DNA of 64,000 bases, from positions 51,579 to 115,578 of the forward strand of contig CAWEYC010000039.1 of the NCBI GenBank assembly GCA_963813195.1, in the 5' to 3' direction. Of this stretch, positions 4,577-42,759 are shown piece after piece. Under the pieces are notes generated by a model. The model was not told where the DNA came from and did not search any database. It saw only the letters and a program-made list of their open reading frames with translations. Position 1 is the stretch's first letter, and the number at the start of each line of letters is the position of its first letter. This DNA comes from an uncultured Alphaproteobacteria bacterium. GTDB lineage: Bacteria; Pseudomonadota; Alphaproteobacteria; Rhizobiales; Beijerinckiaceae. The position numbers were made by a program, and so were the translations under genes.

Positions 4577-5806
4577 ATGGCGGAGGATGTAGCGGAACTC
4601 GAGACGAGACCCGACGAGCCGACGCGGAAGCCGGAGCCAGACCCGACGCCGGCGCGCAAGAACGACGATCAGGCCCACCAGAAGGATGGAGAGTCGAGTA
4701 AGGTCGAGCCGCCGGAAGCCGATAAGCTTCCCCCGGCTTTGCCGGGGTGGCCCTTTGTTCTGGTCGGACTCGTCGTGGCGATCTTCGTCGCAGTGGTCTT
4801 GTACATCATTTTCCGACCACGCCCAGACGTAGAGACCGACGATGCTTATGTGATGGTCCATTACGCGACGATCGCGCCGCGCATCGCCGGCCAAATCGCT
4901 ACAGCGCCTGTCGACGACAACGACGTCGTCAAGACAGGACAAGTTCTCGCAACGCTGGACCCGCGCGACAACGAAACCGCCTTGGCATCCGCCGAGGCGG
5001 CGGTCGCGCGCGACAGATCGCAACTCGATGAGATCTCTGCGACCGTGTCGCGCCAACCCTCGCTCATTGAAGAGCAGAACGCGGCCGTTGCGTCGGCACG
5101 CGCCAAGCTCGCTTTCGTTGAGGCCGACGCGCGTCGATACAGCAATCTCGCTGCCACGGGAGCCGCCACGGTGCAGGAACACCAGCACGCCGACGCCGCG
5201 CTTCGACAGGGTCAAGATTCGTTGGATAGCGCTGTGGCTTCCCTCGATGCGGCGCGTCGGCAACTTGACGCGCTCAAGGCCCAGAGATCCGCGGCGGAGG
5301 CGGCGGTCAAGGGCGATGAGGCTCAACTTGAACAGGCCAAGCTCAATCTTTCCTACACACAGATTCGCGCGCCGATCGACGGCGTCGTGGGCGAACGGTC
5401 GGTACAAGTCGGCAACTACGTCGGCCCCGGCACGACTTTGATGACTGTCGTGCCGCTCGACCAAGTCTATATCGAAGCGAACTATCGCGAAGTGGATCTG
5501 CTGCACATCCGCGGCGGCCAGCCCGCGACCATCCATGTAGACGCCTATGACATCGACCTCAAAGGGATAGTGGATGGCGTGCCGCCGGCCTCCGGCGCCA
5601 CATTTGCTCCCATCGCGCCCAACAACGCCACTGGCAATTTCACGAAGATCGTGCAACGACTACCGGTCAAGATTGTGGTGACGCCCGGGCAACCTTTGGC
5701 TAAGCTCCTGCGCGTGGGTTTGTCAGTCGAGACCACCATCCATACAGGACTGGAGGATGTCGTGGACGAACAGCGCAGATCAAGCGATCGCGTGACCGGG
5801 CGCTGA
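4577..5806 (+). CDS. HlyD/EmrA-family membrane fusion protein
   Basis: TDDAYV, IAPRIAGQI, IRAPIDGVV and NATGNFTKIVQRLPVKI motifs. ATG 4577 follows a GGAG RBS. Confidence 0.93.
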   Translation: MAEDVAELETRPDEPTRKPEPDPTPARKNDDQAHQKDGESSKVEPPEADKLPPALPGWPFVLVGLVVAIFVAVVLYIIFRPRPDVETDDAYVMVHYATIAPRIAGQIATAPVDDNDVVKTGQVLATLDPRDNETALASAEAAVARDRSQLDEISATVSRQPSLIEEQNAAVASARAKLAFVEADARRYSNLAATGAATVQEHQHADAALRQGQDSLDSAVASLDAARRQLDALKAQRSAAEAAVKGDEAQLEQAKLNLSYTQIRAPIDGVVGERSVQVGNYVGPGTTLMTVVPLDQVYIEANYREVDLLHIRGGQPATIHVDAYDIDLKGIVDGVPPASGATFAPIAPNNATGNFTKIVQRLPVKIVVTPGQPLAKLLRVGLSVETTIHTGLEDVVDEQRRSSDRVTGR

Positions 5807-5809
5807 TTG

Positions 5810-26657: not shown

Positions 26658-26963
26658 ATGTCTGGTTCCGATCTCTCGAGCGCCGGGCTCGACGCGCGGC
26701 GGCGGCGCGTATTGTTTCGCGCCTGGCGGCGCGGTCTGCGCGAGATGGACCTGGTCATGGGCCGGTTCGCCGATAGGAACCTGCGTGAGATGGGTGAAGC
26801 CGATTTGAGCGAATTCGAGCGCCTCCTCGACGTTCCCGACCCGCAGGTTCTCGCCTGGATCACCGGCGAGGCGCCGACGCCGCCGACCTTCGATACGCCG
26901 CTGTTCGCGCGCCTGCGCGCCGCGCCGCGAGAAGCCTTGATTAGGGAAGCCGCCGGAAAGTGA
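26658..26963 (+). CDS. sdhE: FAD assembly factor SdhE / succinate dehydrogenase assembly factor 2
   Basis: RAWRRGLREMDL (RGxxE motif), coupled to mfd as usual in alphaproteobacteria. Confidence 0.92.
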   Translation: MSGSDLSSAGLDARRRRVLFRAWRRGLREMDLVMGRFADRNLREMGEADLSEFERLLDVPDPQVLAWITGEAPTPPTFDTPLFARLRAAPREALIREAAGK

Positions 26964-29900
26964 AATCACTCGCCTCCGCCGTCGAGCGTCTCGCGCAAAG
27001 CGGCGACGTCACGCTCTCTCGCGCGCCCGAAGGATTCGACGCCTTCGTTGTTGCCGAACTCGCGCGCAGCTTTGCGCGCGCCGGGGAAGAGCGGGCCGCC
27101 GCGCTGGTTTTCGTCGCACGCGACGGGGTCCGGGCGCAGAGCTTCATCGACGCGCTGGCCTTCGCCGCTCCCGAGATCGAAGCGCTCTACCTGCCGTCGT
27201 GGGATTGCCAGCCTTACGACCGCGTTTCGCCGAACGCGGCTGTCTCGGCTCAGCGCATGACGGCTCTGGCGCGGTTGGCGCGGACGCGCGGCGCGCTGGA
27301 GCGGCCGCGCGCGCTCGTCGTCACAGTCAATGGCCTCGTGCAACGCGTTCCCCCGCTGAAATTCGTCTCGGGATCGGCCTTCTCCGCCGCACCGGGTAAC
27401 AGCGTGCGGATGGAGGACCTCGCGCTCTGGCTCGAGGCCAACGGCTACGGCCGCGCAAGCTCGGTGCGCGACGTCGGCGACTACGCCACGCGCGGCGGCA
27501 TTCTCGATCTTTATCCGCCAGGCGCGCCGGCGCCGATCCGCCTCGATTTCTTCGGCGACACTCTCGAATCCATTCGCTCGTTCGATCCAGAGACCCAGCG
27601 CAGCGTCGGTCAATTGCGCGCGCTCGATCTGGTGCCGATGAGCGAGGCGCGACTGACGAGCGAATCGATCCGCCGATTTCGTCAGGCCTATACGGCGGAG
27701 TTCGGTGCGCCGAGGCGCGGCGACGCGCTCTACGAGGCTGTCAGCGAAGGGCGTCGCGCGATCGGCCTGGAACACTGGCTGCCGCTGCTCTACGAGACGA
27801 TGGACAGCGTGTTCGATTACGCGGCGGGCGCGCCGTTCGTGCTCGACGCGCGTGTCGAAGACGCCGCCCACGAGCGTTTCGCGCAGATCGCCGATTATTA
27901 CGGCGCGCGCCGGGCGGCTTACGAGGAAGACCCGGCGAAGGCCGACTATCGGCCGCTCAAGCCCGATCGCCTCTACCTCGGCGAAGAGGAGTTTCGTCGC
28001 CGGCTGACGAGCGGGCCCCTCGCGCGTCTGACGCCGTTCGAGGCCTCGCCGGGCGCCGCGAACGTCGTCGACTGCGGCGGTCGGGTCGGTCGCGATTTCG
28101 CGCCGGAGCGCCTGGACGAAAACGTCAATGTCTTCGACGCCGCGGTCGGACATATCCGGACCTTGCGCGACAATGGCCTTCGCGTCGTGGTCGCAGGCTG
28201 GAGCGACGGCTCGCGCGAGCGCCTCAGTCACGTGCTCGCCGAGCATGGGCTGAAATCGCAAGAGCTGGTGTCCTCCTACGCGCAGGTGAAGACCGCCCGC
28301 GCCGGCACGTTGCCGCTCGCGGCGATCGCATTGGAGCGCGGCTTCGAGGCGGACGATCTCGCCATCGTCGGCGAGCAGGACATCCTCGGCGATCGCCTAG
28401 TCCGCCAGCAAAAGCGCAAGCGCCGGGCGCAGGACGTGCTGGCCGAAGCCGCCGCGCTGACGGCGGGCGACCTCGTCGTGCATGTCGATCACGGCATCGG
28501 CCGCTTCGTCGGCCTCAGCACGATCGAGGCTGCAGGCGCGCCGCACGACTGCCTGGAAATCCACTATGCGGGCGGCGATCGACTGTTCCTGCCGGTCGAG
28601 AATCTCGAACTGCTGTCGCGCTACGGCTCCGAGCAGGGCGAACTCGACCGCCTGGGGTCCACGGGCTGGCAGACGCGCAAGGCGCGGCTGAAGAAGCGCG
28701 TACGCGAAATGGCAGGTGAACTGATCCGGATCGCTGCGCAACGCATGACGCGGGCCGCGCCGCGGCTCCTCCCGCCCGAAGGGCTCTATGACGAATTTTG
28801 CGCGCGCTTTCCCTACGACGAGACTCAGGACCAGGCGAGCGCCATCGAGGCGACGCTCGACGATCTCGCGGCGGGACGGCCGATGGACCGGCTCGTCTGC
28901 GGTGACGTCGGCTTCGGCAAGACGGAGGTCGCACTGCGCGCCGCCTTCGCCGCCGCGATCAACGGCAAGCAGACCGCGATCGTCGTTCCCACGACCTTGC
29001 TTGCTCGCCAGCACGCGAAGAACTTCGTGCAGCGCTTCGCCGGCCTGCCGATCCGGATCGGGCAATTGTCTCGCATGATCGGCGCCGCCGAGCAGCGCGA
29101 AGTGAAGAAGGGTCTCGCCGAAGGCGCGATCGACATCGCGGTCGGCACGCACGCGCTGCTCGGCAAAACGGTCGCCTTCAAGGATCTCGGCCTCGTCGTC
29201 ATCGACGAGGAGCAGCACTTCGGCGTCGGACACAAGGAGCGCCTGAAGGAGCTGCGCTCGGAGGTGCACGTGCTCACGCTGTCGGCGACGCCGATACCCC
29301 GCACGCTGCAACTCGCCATGACCGGCGTGCGCGAATTGTCGATCATCGCGACGCCGCCGATCGATCGGCTTGCCGTGCGCTCGTTCGTCTCGCCCTTCGA
29401 CGCGCTGATTGTGCGCGAGGCGCTGCTGCGCGAGCGCTATCGCGGCGGACAGTCGTTCTATGTCTGCCCGCGCATCGAGGACCTCGACGAGGCCGCGGCG
29501 TTCCTGCGACAAAACGTCCCTGAGGCCAAGTTCGTCGTCGCTCACGGCCAGATGGCGGCGCGCGAACTCGAGGACAAGATCGGCGCGTTCTACGACGGCA
29601 AATACGACATTCTGTTGTCGACCTCGATCGTCGAATCCGGGCTCGACATCCCCCGCGCCAACACGCTGATCGTCCATCGCGCCGACATGTTCGGCCTCGC
29701 GCAGCTCTATCAATTGCGCGGCCGGGTCGGTCGCGCGAAGACGCGCGCCTACGCGATCTTCACTACGCCGCCCAACAGGCCGGTGACGACGCAGGCGCAG
29801 AAGCGGCTCGAGGTCTTGCAATCGCTGGATACGCTCGGCGCTGGTTTCCAGCTCGCGAGCCACGATCTCGATCTGCGCGGGGCAGGCAATCTGCTCGGCG

Positions 29901-30466
29901 AGGAACAATCGGGCCACATCAAGGAAGTCGGCTACGAACTCTATCAGCAGATGGTGCAGGACGCGATCGAGCGTCTCAAGGCGGGGGTCGACGAGCCCGC
30001 GCAGGAGATGTGGTCGCCGACGATTTCGCTCGGCGCGCCGGTGACGATCCCGGAGGCCTATATCCCCGACCTGCCGACGCGCCTCGCGCTCTATCGGCGG
30101 CTCTCGGCGCTCGAAGAGGACGCCGACATCGATGCGATGGGCGCCGAGATCGTCGACCGCTTCGGGCCGCCGCCGCAGGAGGTGGCGCTGCTGCTGAAGC
30201 TGGTGACGATCAAGGCGCTCTGCCGGCGCGCGCATGTCGAAAAGCTCGACGCTGGCGCGAAAGGGCTGACGCTCGCCTTCCGCGACAATTCCTTCGCCAA
30301 TCCAGCCGGCCTCGTGAAATGGGTGACGGGCCAGGGCTCGCTCGCCCGCGTCCGCCCGGACATGCGCATCGTCGTGACCGGCGACTTCGACGAGCTGCCG
30401 CAGCGGCTCGAGGGAACGCTGGCGATCATGCGCGAGATCGCGGCGATCGCGCGCAAGAAGGGGTAG
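26960..30466 (+). CDS. mfd: Transcription-repair coupling factor
   Basis: 1168 aa, VHVDHGIG CarD-like domain, CGDVGFGKTEVA, DEEQHFGV, QLRGRVGR. Confidence 0.98.
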   Translation: MKSLASAVERLAQSGDVTLSRAPEGFDAFVVAELARSFARAGEERAAALVFVARDGVRAQSFIDALAFAAPEIEALYLPSWDCQPYDRVSPNAAVSAQRMTALARLARTRGALERPRALVVTVNGLVQRVPPLKFVSGSAFSAAPGNSVRMEDLALWLEANGYGRASSVRDVGDYATRGGILDLYPPGAPAPIRLDFFGDTLESIRSFDPETQRSVGQLRALDLVPMSEARLTSESIRRFRQAYTAEFGAPRRGDALYEAVSEGRRAIGLEHWLPLLYETMDSVFDYAAGAPFVLDARVEDAAHERFAQIADYYGARRAAYEEDPAKADYRPLKPDRLYLGEEEFRRRLTSGPLARLTPFEASPGAANVVDCGGRVGRDFAPERLDENVNVFDAAVGHIRTLRDNGLRVVVAGWSDGSRERLSHVLAEHGLKSQELVSSYAQVKTARAGTLPLAAIALERGFEADDLAIVGEQDILGDRLVRQQKRKRRAQDVLAEAAALTAGDLVVHVDHGIGRFVGLSTIEAAGAPHDCLEIHYAGGDRLFLPVENLELLSRYGSEQGELDRLGSTGWQTRKARLKKRVREMAGELIRIAAQRMTRAAPRLLPPEGLYDEFCARFPYDETQDQASAIEATLDDLAAGRPMDRLVCGDVGFGKTEVALRAAFAAAINGKQTAIVVPTTLLARQHAKNFVQRFAGLPIRIGQLSRMIGAAEQREVKKGLAEGAIDIAVGTHALLGKTVAFKDLGLVVIDEEQHFGVGHKERLKELRSEVHVLTLSATPIPRTLQLAMTGVRELSIIATPPIDRLAVRSFVSPFDALIVREALLRERYRGGQSFYVCPRIEDLDEAAAFLRQNVPEAKFVVAHGQMAARELEDKIGAFYDGKYDILLSTSIVESGLDIPRANTLIVHRADMFGLAQLYQLRGRVGRAKTRAYAIFTTPPNRPVTTQAQKRLEVLQSLDTLGAGFQLASHDLDLRGAGNLLGEEQSGHIKEVGYELYQQMVQDAIERLKAGVDEPAQEMWSPTISLGAPVTIPEAYIPDLPTRLALYRRLSALEEDADIDAMGAEIVDRFGPPPQEVALLLKLVTIKALCRRAHVEKLDAGAKGLTLAFRDNSFANPAGLVKWVTGQGSLARVRPDMRIVVTGDFDELPQRLEGTLAIMREIAAIARKKG

Positions 30467-30519
30467 CCGCGGGTCGATCGCGATTGCTCGTTGTTCTGAG
30501 ATGGAATCAAGCCTCCGCC

Positions 30520-30604
30520 GTCTTGGCGAGCAAAGCGGCGCCATCCAGACGTCGGGATCGCGGCGGCGGCTCAGTCTGGATCGCCACGCTTCGCTCGCGA
30601 AGAC
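30520..30604. repeat. REP-like palindromic element, family A copy 1
   Basis: gtcttggcgagcaaagcggcgccatccagac ... gtctggatcgccacgcttcgctcgcgaagac, similar to the copies at 33261 and 40539. Confidence 0.75.
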
Positions 30605-30638
30605 GGCGGGCTCCGGTTCGACCTAAATACAAAGCGCT

Positions 30639-31563
30639 CTAAAAAATCGACCAGCGCATCCGCTTGGCGAGCTTCTCCAGCGCGATGGCGCCGAGATACG
30701 AATTGCCGTTGGCGTCGAGGCCGGGCGACCACACGGCGATCGAGGCCTTGCCGGGCGCGACGGCGAGTATGCCGCCGCCGACGCCGCTCTTGCCCGGCAG
30801 TCCGACGCGAAAGGCGAAATCGCCGGAGCCGTCGTAGTGACCGCAGGTCAACATCAGCGCGTTGATGCGCCGCGCCCTCTCCGGCGACACGATCGACATG
30901 CCCGTAGCCGGATTGCGTCCCGAGGCGGCCAGATATCGCCCGGCCAGCGCGAGTTGCCGACACGACATGGCGATCGCGCAATGGTGGAAATAGACGCCGA
31001 GGATGAAGTCGACCGGATTTTCGAGCCGAGCGAACGACTTCATGTAATTGGCGAGCGCCGCGTTACGATAGCCGGTGCGCTTTTCCGATTGCGCGACGGC
31101 CTGGTCGATGACGATGGAATTGTCCTCGGCGAGGAAGCGCACGAAGCGCAGGATTTCGCCGAGCGCCTCGCGCGGCTCATGGCCCGACAGGATCACGTCG
31201 GTCACGGTGATGGCGCCGGCGTTGACGAACGGGTTGCGCGGGATGCCTTTCTCGTATTCGAGCTGGACGATCGAATTGAACGGATTGCCGGAGGGCTCGC
31301 GGCCGACGCGTTTCCATAAGAGGTCGCCGACCAGGCCCAGGGCGAGCGTCAGCGTGAAGACCTTCGAGACGCTCTGGATCAGAGAAGGGCGCATCCGCGT
31401 CGCCCGCGACGATCACCCGTCCGTCGACATCGGCGACCGCAAGGCCGAACGCGGCGGGGTCGACCCGCGCGAGTTCCGGAATGTAGCTCGCGACCGCGCC
31501 GCGATCCGTCCGCGCCCTCATTTCGGCGGCGATGTCCTGCACAGCGGTTTCGAGATCGGTCAA
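30639..31563 (-). pseudogene. glsA: Glutaminase with a single +1 frameshift near 31381
   Basis: [12 protein letters not shown]...DAPF then SIQSVSKVF (SxxK) in a shifted frame, plus NPFVNAGAI and [14 protein letters not shown] start at 31563. Confidence 0.88.
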
Positions 31564-31652
31564 CGGTTTCCCCGGGGGCGAAAAGGACGCGGCTCTTACG
31601 CTAAAGCACGGCGATCGGAAAACCAGCGCCCATTCGCGAACATCGATGGGCG

Positions 31653-31710
31653 CCAAACTTTTCCAAGGGTTTTCCAAACGTTCCCAAGGAATTTCCAAAC
31701 TTTTCCAAAT
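31653..31710. repeat. Phased TTTTCCAA-like repeats (about 10-11 bp period)
   Basis: ccaaac ttttccaagg gttttccaaac gttcccaagg aatttccaaac ttttccaaat abutting the IS66 left end. Confidence 0.6.
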
Positions 31711-33216
31711 GTAATTGCTCACTCCCCCTGGGAAGATGGCGGTTTTGACGAGATCGGCGCGGTGTTTGACAGGCGAAACGGCGACTGATTCAAGCTTGCG
31801 ATGGATCGCAAGGCGCTTGATTCGCTTGACCGGGAAAGCCTGATCGGCATCATCGCGATGCAGTTCGAGGCGATTGAGCGGTTGACGGCCGAGGTGGCGG
31901 CGTTGCGAGCCGAGAACGCCGAACTTCGGGCCGCAAACGCCGAACTTCGCGGCAAGCTGGACCAGCCTGCCAAGACACCGGATAATTCGAGCCTCCCGCC
32001 GAGCCGGGGACAGAAACCCTCGATCTGGGCCAAGGATCGTCCCAAGCGCGCGCCGCATGCGGGCGCGCACCGGCCCTTGCACCCCAATCCCACGCAGCGG
32101 CGCGAGGTTCTGGCGACGGCCTGTCAGCACTGCGGCGCCGACGTCTCGCGAAGTCCGCAAAAGCCGCGCGAAACCTATGACCGGATCGAGATCCCCGACA
32201 TCAAGCCGGATGTGACGCGGGTAACCTTGCACGGCGGCGTCTGCCCCTGTTGCGCCGGGCGCTTCAAGGCGCAGGCGCCCGAAGGGTTGGAGCCGGGATC
32301 GCCGTTCGGCCCCAACCTGCGCGCCTTCATCGTCTACCTCCGATTCACGCAAGGCGTCGGGTTCGAGCGCCTGTCGGCGCTGATGCGCGATCTCCTCGGC
32401 GTCGACATCAGCGAAGGCGCGATCGTCAATGTCCTCAAGGCGGCGCGGCGCGGCTTTCGGACGGCGAGCGAGGCCATCCGCGCCCGTCTCTTGTCGGGAA
32501 CCGTGATCTGCTCGGACGAAACCGGCTTTCGCGTCGGCAAGAGAAGCTGGTGGCTGTGGGTGTTCCATCACGGCGACGACGCCTATTTCATGAGCCACCC
32601 GCGACGCGGCAAAGTGGCCGTGGAGGAATTCCTCGGCCCCTTTCGACCCGACGCCTGGGTTTCCGACCGCTTCGGCGCCCAAAAAGGCTGGGCGAAAAAC
32701 GATCATCAAATCTGCCTCGCCCATCTGCTTCGCGACACCCAATTCGTCATCGACGAGGGCGACGACGTCTTCGCGCCGGGCTTGCGCCATCTCATCGGCC
32801 GCGCCTGCCGCCTCGGGCGTCGCCGCGAAAGGCTCGCCGACGCCTCGCTCAAAATCTATCGCGCCAAACTCGACGCCGATCTCGACGATCTGCTCCACCT
32901 GGCCCCAAGCCATGCCGCCGGCGTCAAATGGCAGGCCACAATCCAAAAGCTCCGCCCCCATCTCTTCGTCTTCATGGCCAACCGCGCCATTCCGCCAACC
33001 AACAACGGTTCCGAACGCGCCCTGCGGCCCTGCGTCACCTTCCGAAAAATCACCAACGGCTTCCGCTCCCAATGGGCGGCCTATCAATACGCCAATATTC
33101 GATCCGTCATCGAAACCGCTCGCCGGCAATCCATCGGACCCCTCCAAGCCATTCGACAGGCCATCCTCGCCTAACCATCAAACCCAAAAGTCAAGCCCCC
33201 AGGCGTGAGCAATTAC
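31711..33216 (+). mobile_element. IS66-family element (single-ORF, ISBst12-like)
   Basis: Terminal IRs GTAATTGCTCAC at 31711 and reverse complement ending at 33216. No 8-bp TSD is visible. Confidence 0.92.
31801..33174 (+). CDS. IS66 transposase (TnpC)
   Basis: Coiled coil, [10 protein letters not shown], zinc finger (CQHCG...CPCC), [25 protein letters not shown]. Confidence 0.95.
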
Positions 33217-33260
33217 ATTGTTGAGCCCGCCGTTTTACGCCCTTCCGTGAACTCCACCTC

Positions 33261-33343
33261 GTCATCGCGAACGACAGCGAAGCGATCCAGACTAAGCCGC
33301 CGCCAACTCCAAGCCTAGATCGCTTCGCTCTGCTCGCGAGGAC
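33261..33343. repeat. REP-like palindromic element, family A copy 2
   Basis: gtcatcgcgaacgacagcgaagcgatccagact ... ctagatcgcttcgctctgctcgcgaggac. Confidence 0.75.
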
Positions 33344-33594
33344 GACCCTGGGGTTGGGCTCGGCACTGCGGCGGAAGCCTTCGCTGAGGTGCGATTTCAG
33401 ACTACAGCAAATTCTGATTTTCAGGAAGAGAATGCTCGAAATCGGGATCAAGCAAGCTGCCGCGGTGTTTCCCTGTGGGGCGCCTTTTCCGTTGCAGGCC
33501 TCATCGAATTCAGTGAGATTGAGCGCTTCGCTCGGAGCTACGTGAGGGAAGTGAAAGCGCCACGACGCAGGCGCGCGAAAAGGGAGGGGTCACG

Positions 33595-34501
33595 ATGGCG
33601 ATCAAGAACTTCGATGCGGAGACGCTGACGGCGGAAGTGCTGCGGCGGCTGGAAGGCGCCGAAAATCCTCGCGCCAAGGAGGTCCTGTCGAGCCTCGTCC
33701 GACATCTCCACGGCTTTGTCCGCGAGGTCCGGCCGACGCCGGAGGAGTGGATGGCGGGCGTCAAGTTGTTGATCGAGACCGGACAATGGTGCGACGGCGA
33801 GCGCAACGAGTTCATCCTGATGTCGGACACGCTCGGCGTGTCGATGTTGGTCGACTTCCTCAACTACGGCCGCATCGAGGGGTGCACCGAGTTCGACGGT
33901 GCTCGGCCCGTTCTTCGTCGAGGACGCGCCGGAACTCCCGCTGGGCGCCAACATCGCCAAGCCCGGCACGTCCGGCGAGCCTTGTGTGGTCACCGGCAGC
34001 GTTCGCGATCTTGACGGGCGACCGATAGCAGGGGCGCTCCTCGATGTCTGGGAAGGCGACGGCGACGGCTTCTATGACGTGCAGAAGACGGATGGCGTGA
34101 ACCTGCGCGGACGCTTTCGCACCGGCCCCGACGGCGAGTTCTGGCTCAAATGCGTGCGCCCGACGAGCTATCCCGTGCCGACCGACGGCCCGACCGGCCG
34201 GCTGCTCAAATCGGCGGGGCGTCACCCGATGCGGCCGGGGCACCTCCACACCATGCTCGCCGCCCCGGGCTTCGATACGTTGGTGACCCATCTTTTCGTG
34301 CGCGGCGATCGCTACCTCGATTCCGACGCGGTTTTCGGCGTGAAGGAATTGCTGATCGTCGACTTCGATAAGACGAATTCGCCTGAGGAGGCCGCCCGAT
34401 TCGGCATGGAAGCGCCGTTCTGGCGGGCGCACTACGACTTCGTGCTCAAGCCGGCCGCCGCTTCGCCCCGGCGCGAAAAGGTTGCCGTCCTCACCGATTG
34501 A
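33595..34501 (+). pseudogene. Intradiol ring-cleavage dioxygenase (hydroxyquinol/catechol 1,2-type) with a +1 frameshift near 33892
   Basis: RNEFILMSDTLGVS, then TE(S)TVLGPF broken by an extra T. Iron ligands YDVQ, YPVPTDGP and RPGHLH are present. Confidence 0.88.
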
Positions 34502-34830
34502 TCGCTTCCAGCGCCAGTCCCCGCGTGCTCGGGCCGAGGGCGATGGCGACGACGCCGACCGCCATTGCGGCGCCGATGAAGATGGCGACGAAGGGGACGC
34601 CGCCGGCTTCCAGCAGCAGGGCGATCACCAGGCCGGCGAACGCGCCGACGAGCCGGCTCCAGGAATAGACGAAGCCGACCGCGCGGGCGCGGATGCGGGT
34701 GGGGTAGACCTCCGCCTGGTAGCCGTGAAACGCGTAGGACATGATGTTCGAGGCGAGCGTGAAAACGATGCCGAGCGCGATGAGCGCCGCCGCGTCGCTC
34801 GCCTGAGCAAAGAGCGTCATCGCGACGCCC
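34489..34830 (-). repeat. Orphan copy of the last 342 bp of the MFS gene (direct repeat of 37019-37360)
   Basis: Base-by-base comparison gives about 21 mismatches in 342 bp with a 2530-bp offset. It encodes the same C-terminal ~110 aa with 4 substitutions. Confidence 0.95.
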
Positions 34831-34894
34831 GCATTGCGGGAGATCAATGTGTCACTGCCGGCCCGATTTTCCGCCTGCGGCACGTTGCGCGTGG

Positions 34895-36895
34895 TCACGA
34901 GGGCTCAGCTTCGATCTGATCGCCGCCCAGCCCTGGCAAACGCCAGATTTCGCAAGCCGCTAGAGCCATCCCTCTGCCGCGCGCCTCGATTTCGTTTTCG
35001 TCCCACATCGGCTTTTTCGCGAAGTCTCGGGTCATCATGAGAACGGACTGGTCTTCGAATTCTTTTCGCTTAATATCGAACGATTTGTTACTAACTCGGC
35101 TGTTGAATGATTGAGTTACAAGCGTGAGGTTACCAATCGTGTCCTTGAGGCGATTGCGCATTACAATTCGGCCTGAGGGACTGTTGTCTTCTATCTTTGA
35201 GTACTGTGCCTGGCTGAAATCCCAGTCAGACGGGACCAAGCTACCCATCATTGGCCAGTGAGCGCGCCATGCCGATGGCATGATGTGTTCGACAGTAAGG
35301 TCGTCTGGCAAACTCTGCGTTTCCTGAAACCTGCCGCGCTTTCGTTGTTCGATCGTAGATAATAGCGCCCTTGTCTTCGCCGGTCCGAGCGTTGTGTAAA
35401 CCGGCATGCTGACTAGCAAACGAAAAAATTCGTCGTCTTTCGGGAAGCGACCGCTTTCTGACTTTTGATCCAAGAAAAAACTTTGAAATCCACTTTGGGT
35501 CCAACCTGCACGGTCGACATGCGCGATCGCCGAAAGGAATAGATTGTTGTAATTCTTGTTTGTTAGCCCACACACCGCACGCCGCACGATAAAGGATAGC
35601 AAAAAATCGAGCGCATCCTTCTTTTCAGTGTTGGTCAGGTTTTCTGTCGCCCAAAGGCGAAGGATTAGCGGGTTCGCAGTTGTCACATCCCAGAGTTGCA
35701 GGCGGCGGGAAAAATCGGACAGGGCTGAATTTGTCTCTCTCTCGATGAATTCGCGATAGATAGCCCCGTAGGCTTCCAGATCGTTAATTTCGGCTTCGAC
35801 GGTCGGATAACGCGGCTTCGTGCTATTTCTGGGCGGCTTCAGAAACGCCTTGTATTCTGAAAAGAGCTTTGAGATCGTGATCTCGCCCGCGATTTTGCCT
35901 GCGATGAAATTGGCGAGGAAAAACTCGATGCGCTGTTTCTTGTAGCGCCCTTGTTTTTCGAACATCGACCAGAACGGGTCGTCGAATGGCTTCCAGTGCG
36001 CGGAAAACAATTTCTCGGCTTTAGCCGGGCCAATGCTGGAGTCCGCCCTCTGGAATATGTTGTTCCTGATGAGGTCCGCCGCCAAAAGCGGCTCACCGCG
36101 GTCGTTGAGGGTCTCAAAGATGACCTGTGCATCGTCGCCCTCGTCCAAAACGATTTCAACAACTTTGAATTCCTCAAGTAGCGACTGCCAGATCGCGTCG
36201 AGTTTCAGCTCCCGAGGAATCCCGTTCTCGGAACCGGCGCTTGCTTCCACTTCATCAGGGACTTCCTCAAGCTCGGAATGAAGGTCGTCGGTTTCAACTG
36301 AATGCCGAATCCGGTCGTAGAAATAGCCATAGGCGCCGAGGACGTTCGGCACATAACTGTATTCTGCGATCTGGTCTCGCTCCCAGTTCTTATACCAATA
36401 TTCACCGTGCTTTTTCCGAAGCGTCGCGCGTTCCTCGGATAATATAATATCTATGAACATTTCGCGATCGCCCTGCGTCGGCCAGACCTTGAAGATTTCA
36501 ACCTCTGGTTGTTCCATGAGTTGCGGATCGCTGTTCGACACGAATCGCTGGATATTCGACGCAGCGGCCTCATGGTTGATCCTCTGTGCGTAGTGGCGGG
36601 CCGCCGTCAGGAACAACTGGAAGGTCGTCAGCCGCTGCTGTCCATCAACGACTTGGAAGGACGGCACCTGCCTTACGCTGGGCTTGGCGCGGCTTTCCAG
36701 CACAACAGCCCCCATAAAATGTGAGAAGCGCTGAGGACGTTTATCCAAACGCTCAATCGCCTTGGTCCGTACGTCCTGCCAGAACGGTTCCCATTGCTTG
36801 ACCTTCGTCCAGACGTAGCGGCGCTGATAGATCGGTACGCAATAGCGGTTGCGGTTCTGCAGGAGCGTTCCGATTTCGACCGGGCCAGCTTTCAT
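34895..36895 (-). CDS. DUF262-DUF1524 protein (fused GmrSD-like modification-dependent nuclease)
   Basis: VPIYQRRYVW, HFMGAVV, VVDGQQRLTT, IFETLNDRG (DUF262); TVEHIMP and IGNLTLV...N (DUF1524, HNH-like). Visibly lower GC than the flanks. Confidence 0.88.
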   Translation of the reverse strand: MKAGPVEIGTLLQNRNRYCVPIYQRRYVWTKVKQWEPFWQDVRTKAIERLDKRPQRFSHFMGAVVLESRAKPSVRQVPSFQVVDGQQRLTTFQLFLTAARHYAQRINHEAAASNIQRFVSNSDPQLMEQPEVEIFKVWPTQGDREMFIDIILSEERATLRKKHGEYWYKNWERDQIAEYSYVPNVLGAYGYFYDRIRHSVETDDLHSELEEVPDEVEASAGSENGIPRELKLDAIWQSLLEEFKVVEIVLDEGDDAQVIFETLNDRGEPLLAADLIRNNIFQRADSSIGPAKAEKLFSAHWKPFDDPFWSMFEKQGRYKKQRIEFFLANFIAGKIAGEITISKLFSEYKAFLKPPRNSTKPRYPTVEAEINDLEAYGAIYREFIERETNSALSDFSRRLQLWDVTTANPLILRLWATENLTNTEKKDALDFLLSFIVRRAVCGLTNKNYNNLFLSAIAHVDRAGWTQSGFQSFFLDQKSESGRFPKDDEFFRLLVSMPVYTTLGPAKTRALLSTIEQRKRGRFQETQSLPDDLTVEHIMPSAWRAHWPMMGSLVPSDWDFSQAQYSKIEDNSPSGRIVMRNRLKDTIGNLTLVTQSFNSRVSNKSFDIKRKEFEDQSVLMMTRDFAKKPMWDENEIEARGRGMALAACEIWRLPGLGGDQIEAEPS

Positions 36896-37020
36896 ACACT
36901 ACCTCCCCACTTTGGTTGCGTTATTCCCTAAGATGTCAATGGCTTCCACCGCAGTACTGCAGACCATGGGCGGGAACCAAACGTCGGATTCTCACCACTA
37001 GCGCGATTGCGCCCAAGCCC

Positions 37021-38439
37021 TCACCGATTGATCGCCTCCAGCGCCAGCCCACGCGTGCTCGGACCGAGGGCGATGGCGGCGACGCCGACCGCCATTGCGG
37101 CGCCGATGAAGATCGCGACGAAGGGAACGCCGCCGGCTTCCAGCAGCAGGGCGATCACCAGGCCGGCGAAAGCGCCGACCAGGCGGCTCCAGGAATAGAC
37201 GAAGCCGATCGCGCGGGCGCGAATGCGGGTGGGGTAGACCTCCGCCTGATACCCGTGAAACGCGAAGGACATGATGTTCGAGGCGAGCGTGAAGACGATG
37301 CCGAGCGCGATGAGCGCCGCGCCGTCGCTCGCTTGAGCGAACAGCGTCATCGCGACGCCCATCGTGACGAGCGCGGCAATGATCTGCGTCTTGCGTTCGA
37401 TGCGGTCGGCGAACAGCGCGCCGACGAGCGGCCCGAACGGGCTGGCGATGGCGATGATGAAGGAATATTCGAGGCTCGTCGTGATGTTCACGCCGCGATG
37501 CATCAGGAGGGTCGGAACCCAGGCGGCGAAACCGTAGAAGCCGATGACCTGCGCGGCGTTGAAGATCGACAGGATGATGGTGCGATTGAGATAGGGCGGG
37601 GCGAAGGCTTCGGCGAGCGATCCCGCGCCCGAAAAGTCTTCGGGGGCGGCCGGCTTCGGGGGCGCGAGCGCCGCGCCGCTCTCTGTCGCGACTTGGCGTT
37701 CGAGGTCGGCGACGATCGCCAGCGCTTCGTCCCCTTTGCCGTGACGCGCGAGCCAGCGCGGGCTCTCCGGCAAGCCGCGACGGAGGAACCAGACGATCAG
37801 CGCGCCGGCCGAGCCAATGAGAATGATCGCGCGCCAATAGTCGAGGCCGATGGGCGAACTCCCCTTCAGGCCCCAGGCGAGCAGCGCGCAGGCGGGCACA
37901 GCGAGAAACGTGATGACCTGATTGAAGCAAAAGGCGCGTCCGCGCGCCTCGCGGGGGACCAGTTCGGAAATGTAGGCGTCGATCGTCACGAGTTCGACGC
38001 CGATGCCGATCCCGGCGATGAAGCGCCAGAGGACGAGATCGAAGCCGTTGGTCTGAAACGCCATGATGGCGGTGGTGACGGAGTACCAGATCAGCGATCC
38101 CGTGAACACGGCGCGGCGCCCGAACCGGTCGGCGACTTGGCCAAACGCCAGCGTTCCCACCCAAAGCCCGGCGAAGGTCGCGAACACGAAGACGCCGAAG
38201 CCCGCGACCTTCAAGACGGCCAGCGAGGCGAATATGCCGAGCGAATCCGGTTTGAACAGCCCGGACGCGACCATGCCGGGCGCGACATAGCCGGTGAAGA
38301 ACAAATCGTAATATTCGAAAAACCCGCCCAGCGAGATGAGCAGAACGAGGCGCCAGACGGCGCGCGTCGTCGGCAGCCGGTCGAGCCGCGCGGCGACTTC
38401 GGCATATTTCTGGGCCTGGGCGTTGAGCTGGACTTGCAT
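37021..38439 (-). CDS. MFS transporter (aromatic acid/sugar porter-like)
   Basis: [36 protein letters not shown] motifs. Confidence 0.92.
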
Positions 38440-38635
38440 TCGATCCCCCCGGAGACCCCCGGCGCTGTGCGAGGGACTGTTGCTTCGCCGGCTTTACCCG
38501 CGATTCGCCACGGGCCGGACGGCGTTCTCGCGCTTCTTAGCGCGTTCCCGTATATGCTGCAACTCGGCGACGCGTGTCGCCTGGATTTTTCGTCGGCGGC
38601 TGCGCGCCGGCCCGGCGTTGGGGAGGACATATGTC

Positions 38636-39085
38636 GTGAGCCACATCGTCTATGTCCTGAACGGGCCGAACCTCAACCTGCTCGGCAAGCGCCAGCCCGC
38701 GATCTACGGGCATGAGACGCTGGCCGACGTCGAGGCCTCGTGCCGGAGCGCCGGGGCCGAATTGCAGCTCGAAATCGAGTTCCGCCAGAGCAACCGCGAA
38801 TATGAGATCATCGACTGGATTCACGAGGCGCGCGAGAGGGCTGTCGGGATCGTCATCAATCCCGCCGCTTTCACCCACACCTCGGTCGCCATCCTCGACG
38901 CGCTCAATGCCTTCGAGGGACCGATCATCGAGGTCCATATCTCGAACATCCACAAACGCGAGCCGTTCCGCCATCATTCCTACGTCTCAGGCGTAGCGTC
39001 GGGCGTGATCGCCGGCTTCGGCGTCCAGGGCTATGCGCTGGCGTTGCAGCATATGGCGCGGCTGATTGGTGAGACGAAGGCGTAA
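38636..39085 (+). CDS. aroQ: Type II 3-dehydroquinate dehydratase
   Basis: [55 protein letters not shown] start after GGAGG. Confidence 0.95.
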
Positions 39086-39102
39086 GCTGCGTCGCGCGGT
39101 TG

Positions 39103-39174
39103 CCCTCATCCGGCGCTTCGCGCCACCTCTCGGCGAACGAGACGTTCGCCTGACACCCGCAAGCGGGAGAAGGG
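39103..39174. repeat. Intergenic palindromic repeat, family B copy 1
   Basis: ccctcatccggcgcttcgcgccacctctcggcgaacgagacgttcgcctgacacccgcaagcgggagaagg; the core is shared in inverted orientation with 49958-50032. Confidence 0.7.
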
Positions 39175-39218
39175 TTGGGGTGAGGGCGCGGCGATGAGCC
39201 GCTAGCGAGCAGAAATCC

Positions 39219-40475
39219 TCACGCCCACTCGCCCTTGCGGAAGACCGGCGCGCGGCTGCCGTCGGCGTGAACGCCGTCGATGTCGATCTTGTCCGAACCG
39301 ATCATCCAGTCGATGTGGATGAGGCTCTTGTTGCCGCCTTGCGCGGCGATCTCATCGGGCGTCAGCTTCGCGCCTTCGAGGAAGCATTTCGAATAGCATT
39401 GGCCGAGCGCGATGTGGCAAGCGGCGTTCTCGTCGAACAGCGTATTGAAGAACAGCAATCCGCTCTTCGAAATCGGCGAGGAATGCGGCACCAGGGCCAC
39501 CTCGCCCAGGCGGCGGGCGCCCTCGTCGGTATCCAGCACTTTGTTCAGCACCTCCTCGCCGCGCGCGGCTTTCGCTTCGACGATGCGTCCTCCCTCGAAT
39601 CGCACCGCGATTTCGTCGATCAGGGTGCCCTGGTAGGAGAGCGGCTTAGTGCTGACGACACGGCCTTCGACGCGTAGCGCGTGCGGTGTGGTGAAGACCT
39701 CCTCGGTCGGGATATTCGGGTTGCAGATGACGCCGTTCTTGGCGACCGAAGCGCCGCCCTGCCATTCGTGCCCATCGGCAAGACCGATCGTCAGGTCCGT
39801 GCCGGGGCCGGAATAATGCAGCGCGCGGAACCTGTGCCGATTTAGCATTTCGGTCCGGCTGCGCAGCACGGCGTTATGCGCCGTCCAAGCCGCGACCGGA
39901 TCGTCGTTGTCGACGCGCGAGGCGGCGAAGATCGCATCGGCGAGCTTGGCGACCGCGACGGGCTCCTCGTCGCCGGGAAAGACCTGCCTGGCCCATGAAG
40001 CGTTGGGATAGGCGACGAGGTTCCAGTTGATGTCGAAGCCGGCGATTTTTTCCAACGCCGGCTGATAGGCGATCGAATTGGCCCGGTTGGCGCGCGCGAC
40101 CTTCGCGGGGTCCTCGGCGGAAAGCAGCATCGGATTGTCCCCGACGACCCCCAGCCGCGCCGCGCCGCCGGCGAAGGCCTTGGCGACGCCGTCATAGAGC
40201 CAGCCCGGGGCGCGATCGAAGCTCTCGTCCCGCGCGAAGCGAAAACGCGAAAGGGTGATCTCTTCGTCGGAGAGGATCGGGGTGACGAGGCCCGCGCCCG
40301 CCTTATAGGCATGTTCGACGATCCGCCGCACCAACGGCAGCGCCGCGACCGGCGCGGTCAGGAACAGATCCTGCCCCGGCTGGAGGCACACCCCGACCTT
40401 GACGGCCACCTCGGCCAGCCTGTCGAGTTTCACGGGGTCAATCGATGCGGAGAGGTTGCGCTGATGCGTTGTCAT
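39219..40475 (-). CDS. Aminopeptidase T/II (peptidase M29)
   Basis: NIPTEEVFTTP, LGEVALV, LFDENAACHIALG, HIDWMIG. Confidence 0.93.
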   Translation of the reverse strand: MTTHQRNLSASIDPVKLDRLAEVAVKVGVCLQPGQDLFLTAPVAALPLVRRIVEHAYKAGAGLVTPILSDEEITLSRFRFARDESFDRAPGWLYDGVAKAFAGGAARLGVVGDNPMLLSAEDPAKVARANRANSIAYQPALEKIAGFDINWNLVAYPNASWARQVFPGDEEPVAVAKLADAIFAASRVDNDDPVAAWTAHNAVLRSRTEMLNRHRFRALHYSGPGTDLTIGLADGHEWQGGASVAKNGVICNPNIPTEEVFTTPHALRVEGRVVSTKPLSYQGTLIDEIAVRFEGGRIVEAKAARGEEVLNKVLDTDEGARRLGEVALVPHSSPISKSGLLFFNTLFDENAACHIALGQCYSKCFLEGAKLTPDEIAAQGGNKSLIHIDWMIGSDKIDIDGVHADGSRAPVFRKGEWA

Positions 40476-40538
40476 AGGGCTCGTCCTGGAACGGTGTCGG
40501 TCAGGCATACATAGCTCGTGTTGCGCTTCATTCCAGCC

Positions 40539-40623
40539 GTCATCGCGAGCAAAGCGAAGCGATCCAGACTTAGGGTCTGGGGCGCCGGCTTAGTCTGGAT
40601 CGCTTCGCTTTGCTCGCGATGAC
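40539..40623. repeat. REP-like palindromic element, family A copy 3
   Basis: Perfect 32-bp arms gtcatcgcgagcaaagcgaagcgatccagact / agtctggatcgcttcgctttgctcgcgatgac. Confidence 0.85.
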
Positions 40624-40676
40624 GGGGGAGGCTGGCTGGCGGTGGTCGAGTGGCCAGCGCGAGATCGGCAGGGAGC

Positions 40677-40816
40677 GCCGTCGACCTCATGGAAGCCTCT
40701 TCTTTCCGAAGTTTTGAGGCTGTCAATGGCGCGCCTTTCGCGCGCCGCCTCCGGCGGTCGAAGACCATTGACAGCCTCAAAACTTCGGAAGTTCATGCTT
40801 CCATGAGGTCGACGGC
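40677..40816. repeat. 140-bp long palindrome (52-bp arms)
   Basis: Arms 40677-40728 and 40765-40816 are reverse complements except for one ~6-nt internal mismatch. Confidence 0.9.
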
Positions 40817-41182
40817 TTGGTGTGTGACGGGAGGGTCGGCCCGAGGTGAAAATGTCGGGAGTCGCCTGTCGGACCGTGGAATTGCGCATTCGTATCCTGT
40901 CACGGTACCCCGACTAGATGAGCCTTCGGAATAGCCAAGTGCGCCGCTTCTCGCGACCCAGCGCTTTAACGCTGAGATTGATAATTACTGAGGCACGAAT
41001 TACGTTGGGTAGGGCTTGTTTTCTTCCTTTCTCGCTCGGGTAGCGGAGACAGTTGCCAAGGATCGAGCCGGCCGGGTCGCTTTGAGGAGATGCTGTTGCG
41101 AAAGCAATTGCCCGTTGCGCTGATTTTCTCTCACCCTCATATGTACTGCCGCCGGTGAATTAATTTTTTTCGGAGGGGACTT

Positions 41183-41680
41183 GTGAAAGACAAAGAATTG
41201 CGAGGCCTCGTTCTTGAGAGGTTTTATGCGCTCCGGAATAGCGGTGATCCCGTTCAACTAGCGCAGATCGTTTCCGTCGCTCCCAACGACTTAGTCCAGC
41301 TTACAAATGTCTGTGACCAATTAGCAGAGTACGGATTGATCGAATGGAACCCGCTCAAGTCGTTAGCCGGCGTCATCGGAGGGATTGGCCGGATTACGGC
41401 ACGAGGCGTTGACGTTGTTGACGGTGACGTTTCATCCCCCATCACCGTGACCCTTCACGATCATAGCATTACGGTGTCGGGATCTACGAACGTTCAGATT
41501 GGAAACGCCAACTCAATTCAAAATGTCGACATTTCGAAGGTGATGGAAGCGATTGATCGATCGACTGCCTCACCGGAGCAAAAGGAAGAGGCGAAGTCTC
41601 TATGGGCAAGGCTTACTAACAATGCGGCCTTCGCCGCGATTGTCGGAGCGGTGGTAACGTTAGCTGGCACGGCTCATTAG
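41183..41680 (+). CDS. Orphan low-GC protein: wHTH-like N-terminus, RHIM-like NVQIG motif, helical C-terminus
   Basis: GTG start after GGAGG, 165 aa, DQLAEYGLIEW...RITARGVD then ITVSGSTNVQIGNANSIQN. Confidence 0.75.
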   Translation: MKDKELRGLVLERFYALRNSGDPVQLAQIVSVAPNDLVQLTNVCDQLAEYGLIEWNPLKSLAGVIGGIGRITARGVDVVDGDVSSPITVTLHDHSITVSGSTNVQIGNANSIQNVDISKVMEAIDRSTASPEQKEEAKSLWARLTNNAAFAAIVGAVVTLAGTAH

Positions 41681-42759
41681 CCCGCCGCCATCTCCACCCT
41701 TCGTCCCCCGTCATCGAACACATGCACGTCGCGCAGATCCGCGCCGAGCGTGATCGTGTCGCCGGCCCTCGGCGTCTCGCGGCCGCGGATTTCCGCGACG
41801 AGCATCGCGTCGTCGGGGCGGCGAACGTGGGCGAAGGAGGATTCGCCGAGGCGTTCCACGAGTTCGACCGTCCCCCGCGTCGCGAAGGCGGCGGGCGCGC
41901 CGAGGTGTTCGGGCCTGACGCCGACGGTCAGCGCCGCGTCCTCGCGGAGCGCGCCGGCCGGCGCGACGAAGGCGTCGACCGCGGGGCCGGAAATATAAGC
42001 CTGGCCGTCGGCGACGCGGTCGACCTTGGCCTTGAAGAAATTCATCGCCGGCGAGCCGATGAATCCGGCGACGAAGAGATTGGCCGGCGTATAGTAGAGG
42101 TCGAGCGGTTTGCCGACCTGCTCGATGATCCCGTGGTTCATCACGACGATCCGGTCGGCTAGCGTCATCGCCTCGATCTGGTCGTGCGTGACGTAGACCA
42201 TCGTCGCCCCGAGCAGCCGGTGCAGCCGAGCGATCTCGACGCGCGTCGATACGCGCAGCGCGGCGTCGAGATTGGACAGCGGCTCGTCGAACAGGAAGAC
42301 GTCGGGTTCGCGCACGATGGCGCGACCTATGGCGACGCGTTGGCGCTGGCCGCCGGAGAGATCGCGCGGCTGGCGCTGGAGCAGCGGCTCGAGTTTCAAC
42401 ATGCGCGCGGCCTCGGCGACGCGGCGATCCATTTCCGTGCGCTCGACGCCGGTGAACTTGAGACCGAATGTCATGTTCTTGCGGACGTTCATATGGGGGT
42501 AGAGCGCGTAGGACTGGAACACCATGGCGATCTTGCGCTCGGCGGGGGCGAGCGCATTGACGAGCCGGTCGCCGATGTAGATGTCGCCCGAGGTCGGCGC
42601 GTCGAGCCCGGCGATCATGCGCAGCAGGGTCGATTTTCCGCAGCCGGACGGCCCGACCAGCACGAGGAATTCACCGTTGTCGACGCCGAGATCGATATCG
42701 CTGAGAACGCGCGTGTCGCCGTAGGCCTTGGCGAGCTTTTCAATGCGCAGGTTGGCCAT
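41677..42759 (-). CDS. Carbohydrate ABC transporter ATP-binding protein (MalK/MsmK-like)
   Basis: GPSGCGKST, LSGGQRQRVA, FLFDEPLSNLDA, YVTHDQ. Confidence 0.96.
   Translation of the reverse strand: MANLRIEKLAKAYGDTRVLSDIDLGVDNGEFLVLVGPSGCGKSTLLRMIAGLDAPTSGDIYIGDRLVNALAPAERKIAMVFQSYALYPHMNVRKNMTFGLKFTGVERTEMDRRVAEAARMLKLEPLLQRQPRDLSGGQRQRVAIGRAIVREPDVFLFDEPLSNLDAALRVSTRVEIARLHRLLGATMVYVTHDQIEAMTLADRIVVMNHGIIEQVGKPLDLYYTPANLFVAGFIGSPAMNFFKAKVDRVADGQAYISGPAVDAFVAPAGALREDAALTVGVRPEHLGAPAAFATRGTVELVERLGESSFAHVRRPDDAMLVAEIRGRETPRAGDTITLGADLRDVHVFDDGGRRVEMAAG

Follow-up and report, generated by a model that had tools for sequence, protein, structure and literature searches.

The 64,000-nt stretch analysed here (the window) belongs to G000, a 5.95-Mb assembly of an uncultured alphaproteobacterium in 50 contigs with 4.4% contamination. 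It contains a predicted GmrSD-family Type IV restriction gene of low GC content, placed between two direct copies of the 3' end of a major facilitator superfamily (MFS) transporter gene. One copy terminates an intact MFS gene; the other is an orphan tail that meets a convergent dioxygenase gene. The original prediction read this arrangement as an integrase-less 2.53-kb cassette, a circle of gene tail plus defence gene that had integrated into the MFS gene and supplied it with a replacement 3' end. The 342-bp repeats around one low-GC GmrSD-like gene, their coordinates and their divergence at 21 nucleotides and four amino acids are as that prediction described them. Comparison with close relatives suggests a different history, in which two haplotypes of one gene junction were brought together by recombination between related lineages.

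The repeat pair and its cargo gene

The two 342-bp copies (A, the orphan tail, and B, the end of the intact gene; Table 1) are spaced by exactly 2530 bp and are the sole two found in a whole-assembly search of G000. They are 93.9% identical. Read in the MFS frame, their 21 mismatches change 20 codons, 16 of them synonymously and 4 not. Random point changes in this sequence would be synonymous in about 27% of cases, and the probability of at least 17 synonymous changes among 21 under neutrality is 5e-7. Both copies thus diverged as working coding sequence, and this part of the original prediction stands. At the edge proximal to the gene body, the final 18 bp (34813-34830) are the same in A and B, and the longest identical blocks of the two reach 44-55 bp. 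Between them, in 34831-37018, a list of open reading frames (ORFs), Pfam and a repeat search revealed no integrase, transposase or other recombinase ORF and no long inverted repeat, again as first described. The repeats could in principle recombine with each other and drop the gene as a 2.53-kb circle; arrival by that route is not thereby indicated.

The product of the cargo gene matches Pfam GmrSD_N (DUF262, a GmrS/ParB-like NTPase; 2e-36) over residues 8-281, with DGQQR at 84-88, and GmrSD_C (DUF1524, GmrD, a His-Me finger nuclease; 1e-24) over residues 484-644, with EHIMP at 536-540 followed by the Asn-rich GNLTLVTQSFNSRVSN. Its residues 1-651 align to positions 1-625 of the 629 in the PADLOC model PDLC03655 (mREase_IV; 1.3e-91). 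On these matches the gene is predicted to encode a stand-alone, single-chain, modification-dependent (Type IV) restriction endonuclease of the GmrSD family, which would be expected to cut modified phage DNA or DNA with modified bases. In its N-terminal DUF262 with DGQQR, its C-terminal DUF1524 His-Me finger, its stand-alone gene and its full-length mREase_IV match, it resembles the single-chain Type IV enzymes GmrSD, Eco94GmrSD and BrxU (PMC4619093, PMC4437046, PMC8565348). As a difference from them, it does not lie in a bacteriophage exclusion (BREX) or other multi-gene island. Its nearest named relatives are proteins of Agrobacterium and Rhizobium with 81-83% identity, and beyond G000 itself a class-wide protein search, covering 400 genomes in addition to it, turned up no close homologue.

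GC content is 0.53 in the gene and 0.53-0.54 in the gene with its leader, whereas the flanks lie at 0.65-0.70. A GGGGAGG Shine-Dalgarno sequence can be read in the leader. A sigma-70 consensus scan of the cassette flanks gave no promoter match, and no minus-strand terminator was found there either. At the other end of the gene, a predicted 135-aa frame that stays open across the orphan tail begins at a GTG overlapping the stop codon of GmrSD (GTGA, 34895-34898). In L039, a locus with an 89%-identical homologue, the GmrSD gene has the same kind of overlap at its stop, there with an unrelated ORF of 110 aa.

Table 1. Features of the locus in window coordinates. R, lineage of the window backbone; Z, sister lineage represented by contig L038. 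L128 and L138 are R-type relatives.
Feature	Coordinates	Strand	Basis and remarks
mfd (transcription-repair coupling factor), conserved left flank, R-type	26960..30466	+	Pfam TRCF, DEAD, CarD_TRCF_RID; 98.95% to L138, ~92% to L038
Tract near-identical to sister-lineage contig L038, 6.6 kb	30456..37056		Identity profile
Glutaminase, Z-like	30639..31562	-	Pfam Glutaminase; 93-94% to R-type copies
IS66-family insertion sequence (IS), single ORF (transposase 31801-33174)	31708..33219	+	Pfam DDE_Tnp_IS66 7e-39; 18-nt terminal inverted repeats 31708-31725 / 33202-33219
Repetitive extragenic palindromic (REP)-like element, ~87 bp	33260..33345		>40 copies at 75-84% identity in G000; palindrome 33276-33293 / 33312-33329
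Intradiol (catechol/hydroxyquinol-type) dioxygenase	33595..34501	+	Pfam Dioxygenase_N 33595-34014 and Dioxygenase_C 33899-34501, in different frames
Orphan MFS tail, copy A: last 113 codons, stop and 2 nt, Z-lineage allele	34489..34830	-	100% to L038 copy A
Open 135-aa frame over orphan tail	34491..34898	-	ORF list; Pfam MFS_1 and Sugar_tr, both weak; gene call present in two assemblies
64-bp linker, tail A to GmrSD stop	34831..34894		GC 0.64, host-like; matches only L038
GmrSD-family Type IV restriction gene (predicted)	34895..36895	-	666 aa, single chain
5' leader and probable promoter region, travels with GmrSD gene	36896..36958	-	Homology to 89%-identical L039 homologue begins 63 bp upstream of ATG
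Spacer; right end holds degenerate dioxygenase 3' remnant common to R-type backbones	36959..37010		Matches only L038; 36990-37010 weakly similar to post-stop sequence of L128/L138 and to dioxygenase 3' ends
R-type remnant directly after MFS stop	37011..37018		Homology to L128, L138 and empty sites begins; L138 and L128 alignments end at 37011
Copy B, native R-type 3' end of intact MFS gene	37019..37360	-	1/342 mismatch to L138; 96.2% to L128
MFS (sugar-porter family) transporter, intact, 472 aa	37021..38439	-	Pfam Sugar_tr 1e-33, MFS_1 1e-27; protein identical in L138

Two lineages in one locus

The original prediction placed an insertion between the dioxygenase and MFS genes, and a search for empty sites across relatives found 13. 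These related loci show the ancestral state, in which the two genes are convergent, contiguous and overlap by 13 bp; copy A overlaps the dioxygenase stop by the same 13 bp in the window (34489-34501). Three of the empty sites are in genomes of the same genus (G005, G143 and G073; ~87% identity), where the alignment to the window stops at 34830 and resumes at ~37011. The others are on seven metagenome contigs (L045-L051) and three ENA contigs (L125-L127). All empty-site alignments end at 34830, and 34830|34831 is the homology-free junction of the locus. Relative to this common empty site the cargo is an insertion, but a rare one. Each of 80 metagenome MFS loci has one tail only and no GmrSD gene, and 128 other genomes of the genus hold no cargo DNA. 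Neither a further carrier nor a second independent MFS insertion was found in these loci and genomes or in L125-L128 and L138. The short 'MFS' proteins P0124, P0128 and P0130, considered as additional orphan tails, come from complete genes that frameshifts have interrupted, at empty sites of the usual kind.

The backbone of the window, which we call the R lineage, has two close relatives, and both lack the dioxygenase, the IS, the GmrSD gene and the orphan tail. L138 (ERZ25039553 contig_89435) is 99.89% identical to window positions 37011-41716 (4.7 kb), and L128 (JGI Ga0672851_0008107) is 96-99% identical in the flanks. From MFS to glutaminase, L138 carries genes for a cytochrome c, a MoCoBD oxidoreductase subunit and a Fer2 subunit, together with a 93-aa ORF (L138:4707-9805, 5.1 kb in total). 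L128 carries a YkuD L,D-transpeptidase gene and a 101-aa ORF (L128:6043-7610). Neither of these alternative middle segments is present anywhere in G000. Four gene sets (those of the window, L128, L138 and the G005-type loci) thus occur between mfd/glutaminase and the MFS gene, and the glutaminase-MFS interval is a general hotspot of gene turnover with conserved flanks. Only one of the four sets is defence. The suggestion of a fixed locus for swapping defence genes is therefore borne out for the swapping of content and not for its nature, the other sets being non-defence. The other gene sets also lie at the locus without an orphan tail.

Directly after the MFS stop, the tail B side of the window, L128 and L138 share a degenerate remnant of the dioxygenase 3' end, clear over 10 bp and weak over ~30 bp, with indels. 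On this side, homology to the ancestral locus extends 9 bp past the repeat to 37010 and weakly for ~30 bp more, which amends the earlier description. R-lineage chromosomes had lost the dioxygenase apart from this remnant of 10-35 bp. Of the two dioxygenase 3' ends in the window, the one beside tail A is complete and the one beside tail B degenerate, so that two haplotypes of the same junction are united at this locus. The exact junction 37010|37011, common to the window, L128 and L138, was considered as a site-specific target and rejected, because the degenerate 10-35 bp remnant with its indels offers no common cut site.

The second carrier of the cassette represents a sister lineage, here called Z. 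L038 (ENA ERZ25039553 contig_89434, 14.7 kb) comes from the same sample as L138 and runs MFS - GmrSD - orphan tail - dioxygenase - IS66 transposase - glutaminase - mfd. Separately assembled, it repeats the order of tail A, GmrSD and tail B. The window and L038 are ~92% identical outside 30456-37056 and 99.7% identical inside it, with 17 substitutions and 4 single-base indels in 6.6 kb and ~8% divergence in the flanks. The last mismatch in the left flank is at 30455 and the first in the right flank at 37057. The near-identical tract takes in the glutaminase, the IS, the dioxygenase, all of tail A (342/342), the GmrSD gene, the spacer upstream of it and the first 38 bp of tail B. Because the near-identity includes these neighbours, the recently shared unit is not the 2.53-kb one. 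The tract, from mfd to the end of the MFS gene, is on this evidence the unit most recently exchanged. The original prediction of a 2.53-kb circle as the mobile unit thus gives way to one of ~6.6 kb, which would have entered this genome by crossovers in flanking genes.

A tract with such sharp edges could also be a strain-chimeric consensus, in which R flanks were merged with a co-occurring Z middle during metagenome assembly. No cell would then have the R flanks and the cassette together, although the cassette would be real in L038. R- and Z-type loci do co-occur in one sample, as the neighbouring contigs 89434 and 89435 of ERZ25039553. The switch points, 30456 and 37011-37056, match the limits of the variable region, each of the two assemblies has genes broken by single-base indels, and the 50 contigs and 4.4% contamination of G000 leave room for a mixture. 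However, both alternative middle segments are absent from G000, and the window tract differs from L038 at 17 sites and so is not simply built from the same reads. Moreover, L038 itself has ~70 bp beside GmrSD that are R-type (38 bp of tail and the remnant), so an R chromosome linked to GmrSD must have existed. We consider an assembly artefact of this kind improbable. Fine R/Z interleaving in mfd and glutaminase was also considered as mixed-strain consensus, and consists mostly of private L038 or L138 changes once L128 is added to the comparison.

The alleles of the two tails, tabulated against L038, L128 and L138, indicate where each belongs. Genus outgroups did not polarise the 21 differences: against them A and B are each other's nearest relatives, which leaves the native copy undecidable, and the closer L038, L128 and L138 settled the matter. 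Copy B shares derived alleles with L128 and L138, for example at 37048, 37051, 37063, 37079, 37114, 37126 and 37183. The derived alleles of copy A at 34596, 34650, 34679 and 34791 recur in the functional tail of L038; the two encode the same 113 residues and differ by 8 synonymous and 0 non-synonymous changes. By these patterns tail B is the native MFS end of the window's lineage and tail A is a Z-lineage allele, which arrived with its Z-type neighbours. The original prediction had taken the orphan copy for the original chromosomal end and tail B for the supplied replacement. Both assignments are reversed by the R relatives, which lack dioxygenase and orphan tail (L138, at 99.89% over 4.7 kb, and L128), and by the single mismatch in 342 between tail B and L138. 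The outcome named beforehand as telling against an integrative cassette, that the orphan is the remnant of a whole paralogous MFS gene, comes close to what we find: a remnant of a whole MFS gene, but of an orthologous one from a sister lineage.

In L038, tail B is chimeric: R-type over its first 38 bp, as in the post-stop remnant, and Z-type over the remainder, with the switch at ~38-45 bp and the crossover placed at 37051-37063 in window coordinates. Since L038 keeps ~70 bp of R-type sequence beside GmrSD, the gene was once linked to an R-type MFS end.

The two tail copies of L038 differ at only 2 of 270 body-proximal positions, as they might had a stretch of at least 342 bp been duplicated in situ at cargo insertion (for example, by unequal sister-strand exchange) with the copies then diverging in place. 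Such an origin is highly improbable. The differences between copies are mostly synonymous (16/20 codons in the window; 8/8 against L038 tail B), unlike the neutral drift of an orphan, and the sequences after the two stops are unrelated haplotypes, one with an intact dioxygenase and the other with an R-type remnant.

The chimera in L038 also bears on the literal form of the original prediction, in which a 2.53-kb circle of MFS tail and GmrSD entered the tail of a native dioxygenase/MFS locus by a RecA-dependent single crossover. An R-type start of 38 bp followed by Z-type sequence is what one half of a Campbell product would show. The exact 2530-bp spacing fits a circle of that size, and the repeats, with identical blocks of up to 44-55 bp, are long enough for homologous recombination. 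Integration of this kind predicts reciprocal chimeras, yet the other half is absent: in tail A, 38 bp of Z-type sequence should give way to the allele of the circle, but tail A is Z-type throughout. The dioxygenase, IS and glutaminase beside tail A are 99.7-100% identical to L038, whereas the flanks are ~92% identical. The R relatives have no dioxygenase, so the window would never have offered a native dioxygenase/MFS target, and making such a circle requires an illegitimate join anyway. These points contradict integration of the circle in this genome, and we consider this form of the prediction improbable. A circle or an in-trans recombinase may possibly have acted at the very first event, in some ancestor.

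How the mosaic may have been assembled

We favour, at roughly even chances, a reading in which the locus, a hypervariable region between core genes, bears the scar of a single illegitimate join (34830|34831) combined with homologous recombination. In an initial step, a foreign low-GC GmrSD gene with its own leader (63 bp, common to the 89%-identical L039 homologue) would have come to sit immediately downstream of the MFS remnant on an R chromosome. A linear Z fragment, consisting of glutaminase, IS66-family IS, dioxygenase and the last 342 bp of the Z MFS gene, would then have been joined 64 bp past the GmrSD stop. One end of this fragment would have recombined by homology in mfd/glutaminase and the other by a homology-free join at 34830|34831 onto host-like DNA (GC 0.64), a process termed homology-facilitated illegitimate recombination (HFIR). 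A mirror event would yield the same structure: an R fragment with MFS tail and GmrSD, anchored in the MFS body, would displace the Z tail. The composite may subsequently have moved between R and Z by homologous recombination in flanking genes, generating the 6.6-kb near-identical tract. Identity and allele patterns bear directly on this last step, and the two steps before it we infer.

As the broken end of an imported fragment, the orphan tail would for that reason be a perfect functional Z allele, still attached to its natural neighbour, the dioxygenase. The junction at 34830|34831 is abrupt, with a linker that matches only L038, and the left end of the tract lies within mfd/glutaminase homology.

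Each part of this mosaic has precedent. HFIR (reviewed in PMC3240628) leaves orphaned 3' regions, as in the 'C-terminal displacement' of Rhs, contact-dependent inhibition (CDI) and type VI secretion system (T6SS) genes (PMC5361080). Like those loci, the window has a conserved gene with a working 3' end, an in-frame orphan 3' fragment downstream that still looks functional, what appear to be one homologous and one homology-free junction, and no mobile-element genes. Unlike them, it involves a housekeeping-type MFS transporter rather than a polymorphic toxin and holds a defence gene between the ends instead of an immunity gene, and its orphan is accompanied by 4 kb of adjoining sequence that likewise comes from the sister lineage. 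The region can also be compared with cDHS1 and cDHS2, core-gene-flanked defence hotspots of Pseudomonas aeruginosa for which transfer by homologous recombination was proposed and mobile-element scars are lacking (PMC10250203). Both are variable regions between conserved genes, with content that differs among close relatives and low-GC defence cargo. Transfer through the flanks by homologous recombination, proposed there, is visible here as the 6.6-kb tract. The present region differs from cDHS1/2 in that one of four contents is defence, in its small size (1.6-6.5 kb) and in the presence of a duplicated flank fragment. The components and processes are all known, and the case exemplifies them clearly and instructively without adding a new mechanism.

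Several points weigh against a recombination mosaic. The precursor it calls for, an R chromosome with GmrSD and without the dioxygenase and tail A, was not found. The only two known carriers of the cassette share the tract and so are not independent, and both ends of the tract lie very near the edges of the variable region, as a mixed-strain consensus would also give. GmrSD homologues elsewhere are flanked, with equally tight spacing, by repeats of tRNA 3' ends, which hints that site-specific integration is the usual way in which the GmrSD family moves. Furthermore, the alleles do not fix the order of events and agree with several histories once additional recombination steps are admitted.

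Should the mosaic reading hold, the locus would be a natural example of a stand-alone anti-phage gene that moves between related soil or peat Alphaproteobacteria although it brings no mobile-element gene. A single illegitimate join appears to have built the composite, and homologous recombination would have carried a 6.6-kb block across ~8% divergence. The locus also carries a warning. A long, synonymously diverged 3'-end duplicate beside a defence gene mimics the footprint of a target-restoring integrative element and may equally be the end of an imported fragment. Only close relatives separate the two.

Homologues at other targets and minor features

Homologues of the GmrSD gene occur beside genes that are familiar targets of genomic islands. 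In an uncultured Rhodospirillaceae metagenome-assembled genome (MAG; CAYQAG010000002.1), L149:4835-7091 holds a 65%-identical GmrSD gene (5001-6956) between the intact tRNA-Gly(CCC) gene and a 52-nt orphan copy of its 3' part. The two tRNA repeats are 90% identical, and at the anticodon-loop end they match without a break over 21 nt. Housekeeping genes adjoin the locus, which has no integrase within 5 kb. An empty tRNA-Gly site was sought in relatives of this genome, which offered no usable synteny. A block of a tRNA-like 3' fragment, a GmrSD gene and a 67-bp linker, 86% identical between its two occurrences, is found in a Reyranella MAG (L146:4908-7117) and at L148:1431-3637. It abuts tRNA-Arg(ACG) in one of these genomes and tRNA-Arg(CCG) in the other; the outer flanks are unrelated and the genomes distant. 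Two further homologues (78-84% identity) lie directly downstream of guaA, a classic island target (L040:3690-7288 and L152:3417-8387), the one in L152 being interrupted by a 1.4-kb insertion.

These homologues bring into view a decayed or cis-mobilizable element. CIMEs and genomic islands at gene 3' ends have been described at fda in Streptococcus, at tRNA genes and at guaA (PMC5704250). Applied to the window, a tyrosine or serine recombinase, encoded elsewhere or lost, would have acted at a core near MFS codon 360 on a cassette with a carried 3' end. The orphan tail A would be the displaced native end of a Z-type host, and later homologous recombination would account for the present distribution. 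An intact target gene, then cargo, then an orphan 3' fragment ending a few nucleotides past the gene is a classic island footprint, and tail A still adjoins the dioxygenase, the Z-type gene beside which it natively lies. The 18 bp over which A and B are identical lie at the body-proximal edge (34813-34830), where such a core would sit. GmrSD genes at tRNA-Gly (L149) and at two tRNA-Arg genes (L146, L148) extend the pattern, flank sizes are alike in all cases (~55-115 bp), and the CIME concept itself is published (PMC5704250). In holding cargo within direct repeats that include the target-gene 3' end, with no integrase inside, the locus resembles CIMEs in outline, and the three tRNA-associated homologues fit the same description.

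The locus departs from such elements in other respects. Its repeat, at 342 bp and 6% divergence, is far longer than the usual short att core. No recombinase lies in or beside the cassette, and none is adjacent to the homologous GmrSD loci examined. No independent MFS insertion was seen in the 80 metagenome loci, the 128 other genus genomes, L125-L128 or L138, and the guaA-adjacent homologues (L040, L152) have no flanking repeat. The alleles, for their part, point to homologous plus illegitimate recombination. Tail B of L038 is Z-type beyond its first 38 bp, which demands an extra recombination step, and the remnant on the tail B side is specific to dioxygenase-deleted R backbones, so the tail would have to be captured from such a chromosome. 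On balance, a site-specific origin of the window structure is a credible but unlikely alternative to the recombination mosaic.

For the GmrSD lineage at large, we put forward only tentatively, and with a low expectation that it is right, that the gene travels as a recombinase-less, single-gene cassette of ~2.1-2.5 kb carrying a target 3' end, mobilized by recombinases in trans or by RecA acting on the carried fragment. Its targets would be tRNA-Gly, tRNA-Arg and the MFS gene, and the insertion in the window may have been shuffled later by homologous recombination. Such a cassette, if real, would be the defence-gene counterpart of cis-mobilizable elements, reduced to one gene. GmrSD genes between tRNA 3'-end repeats without a nearby integrase merit a survey of their own.

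The IS66-family IS sits 1.3 kb to the left of the repeat-flanked cassette, a point on which the earlier description is amended. It is present once in G000, and 100%-identical copies occur several times in other contigs of sample ERZ25039553; one of these is nested in another IS that has >10 copies in G000. As a cause of the junction the IS was set aside, being 1.3 kb distant, bounded by its own inverted repeats and without any link that we could find.

Single-base indels affect several genes of the locus. An extra T at 33892 relative to L038 frameshifts the dioxygenase, which is intact there (301 aa), and the split gene in the window is either a pseudogene or a sequencing error. An indel near 31379 cuts the glutaminase ORF to 30639-31394, whereas the L038 product is called as 307 aa. 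In L038, the equivalent of position 36307 splits the GmrSD gene, and the ENA contigs L125-L127 likewise have frameshifted gene calls. This suggests that the indels at the locus are long-read consensus errors rather than marks of pseudogenes.

The REP-like element is also found at 40531-40625 in the window. A second low-GC patch (~0.51) at 40950-41550 covers an ORF without a Pfam match (41183-41680) and is 99.9% conserved in L138.

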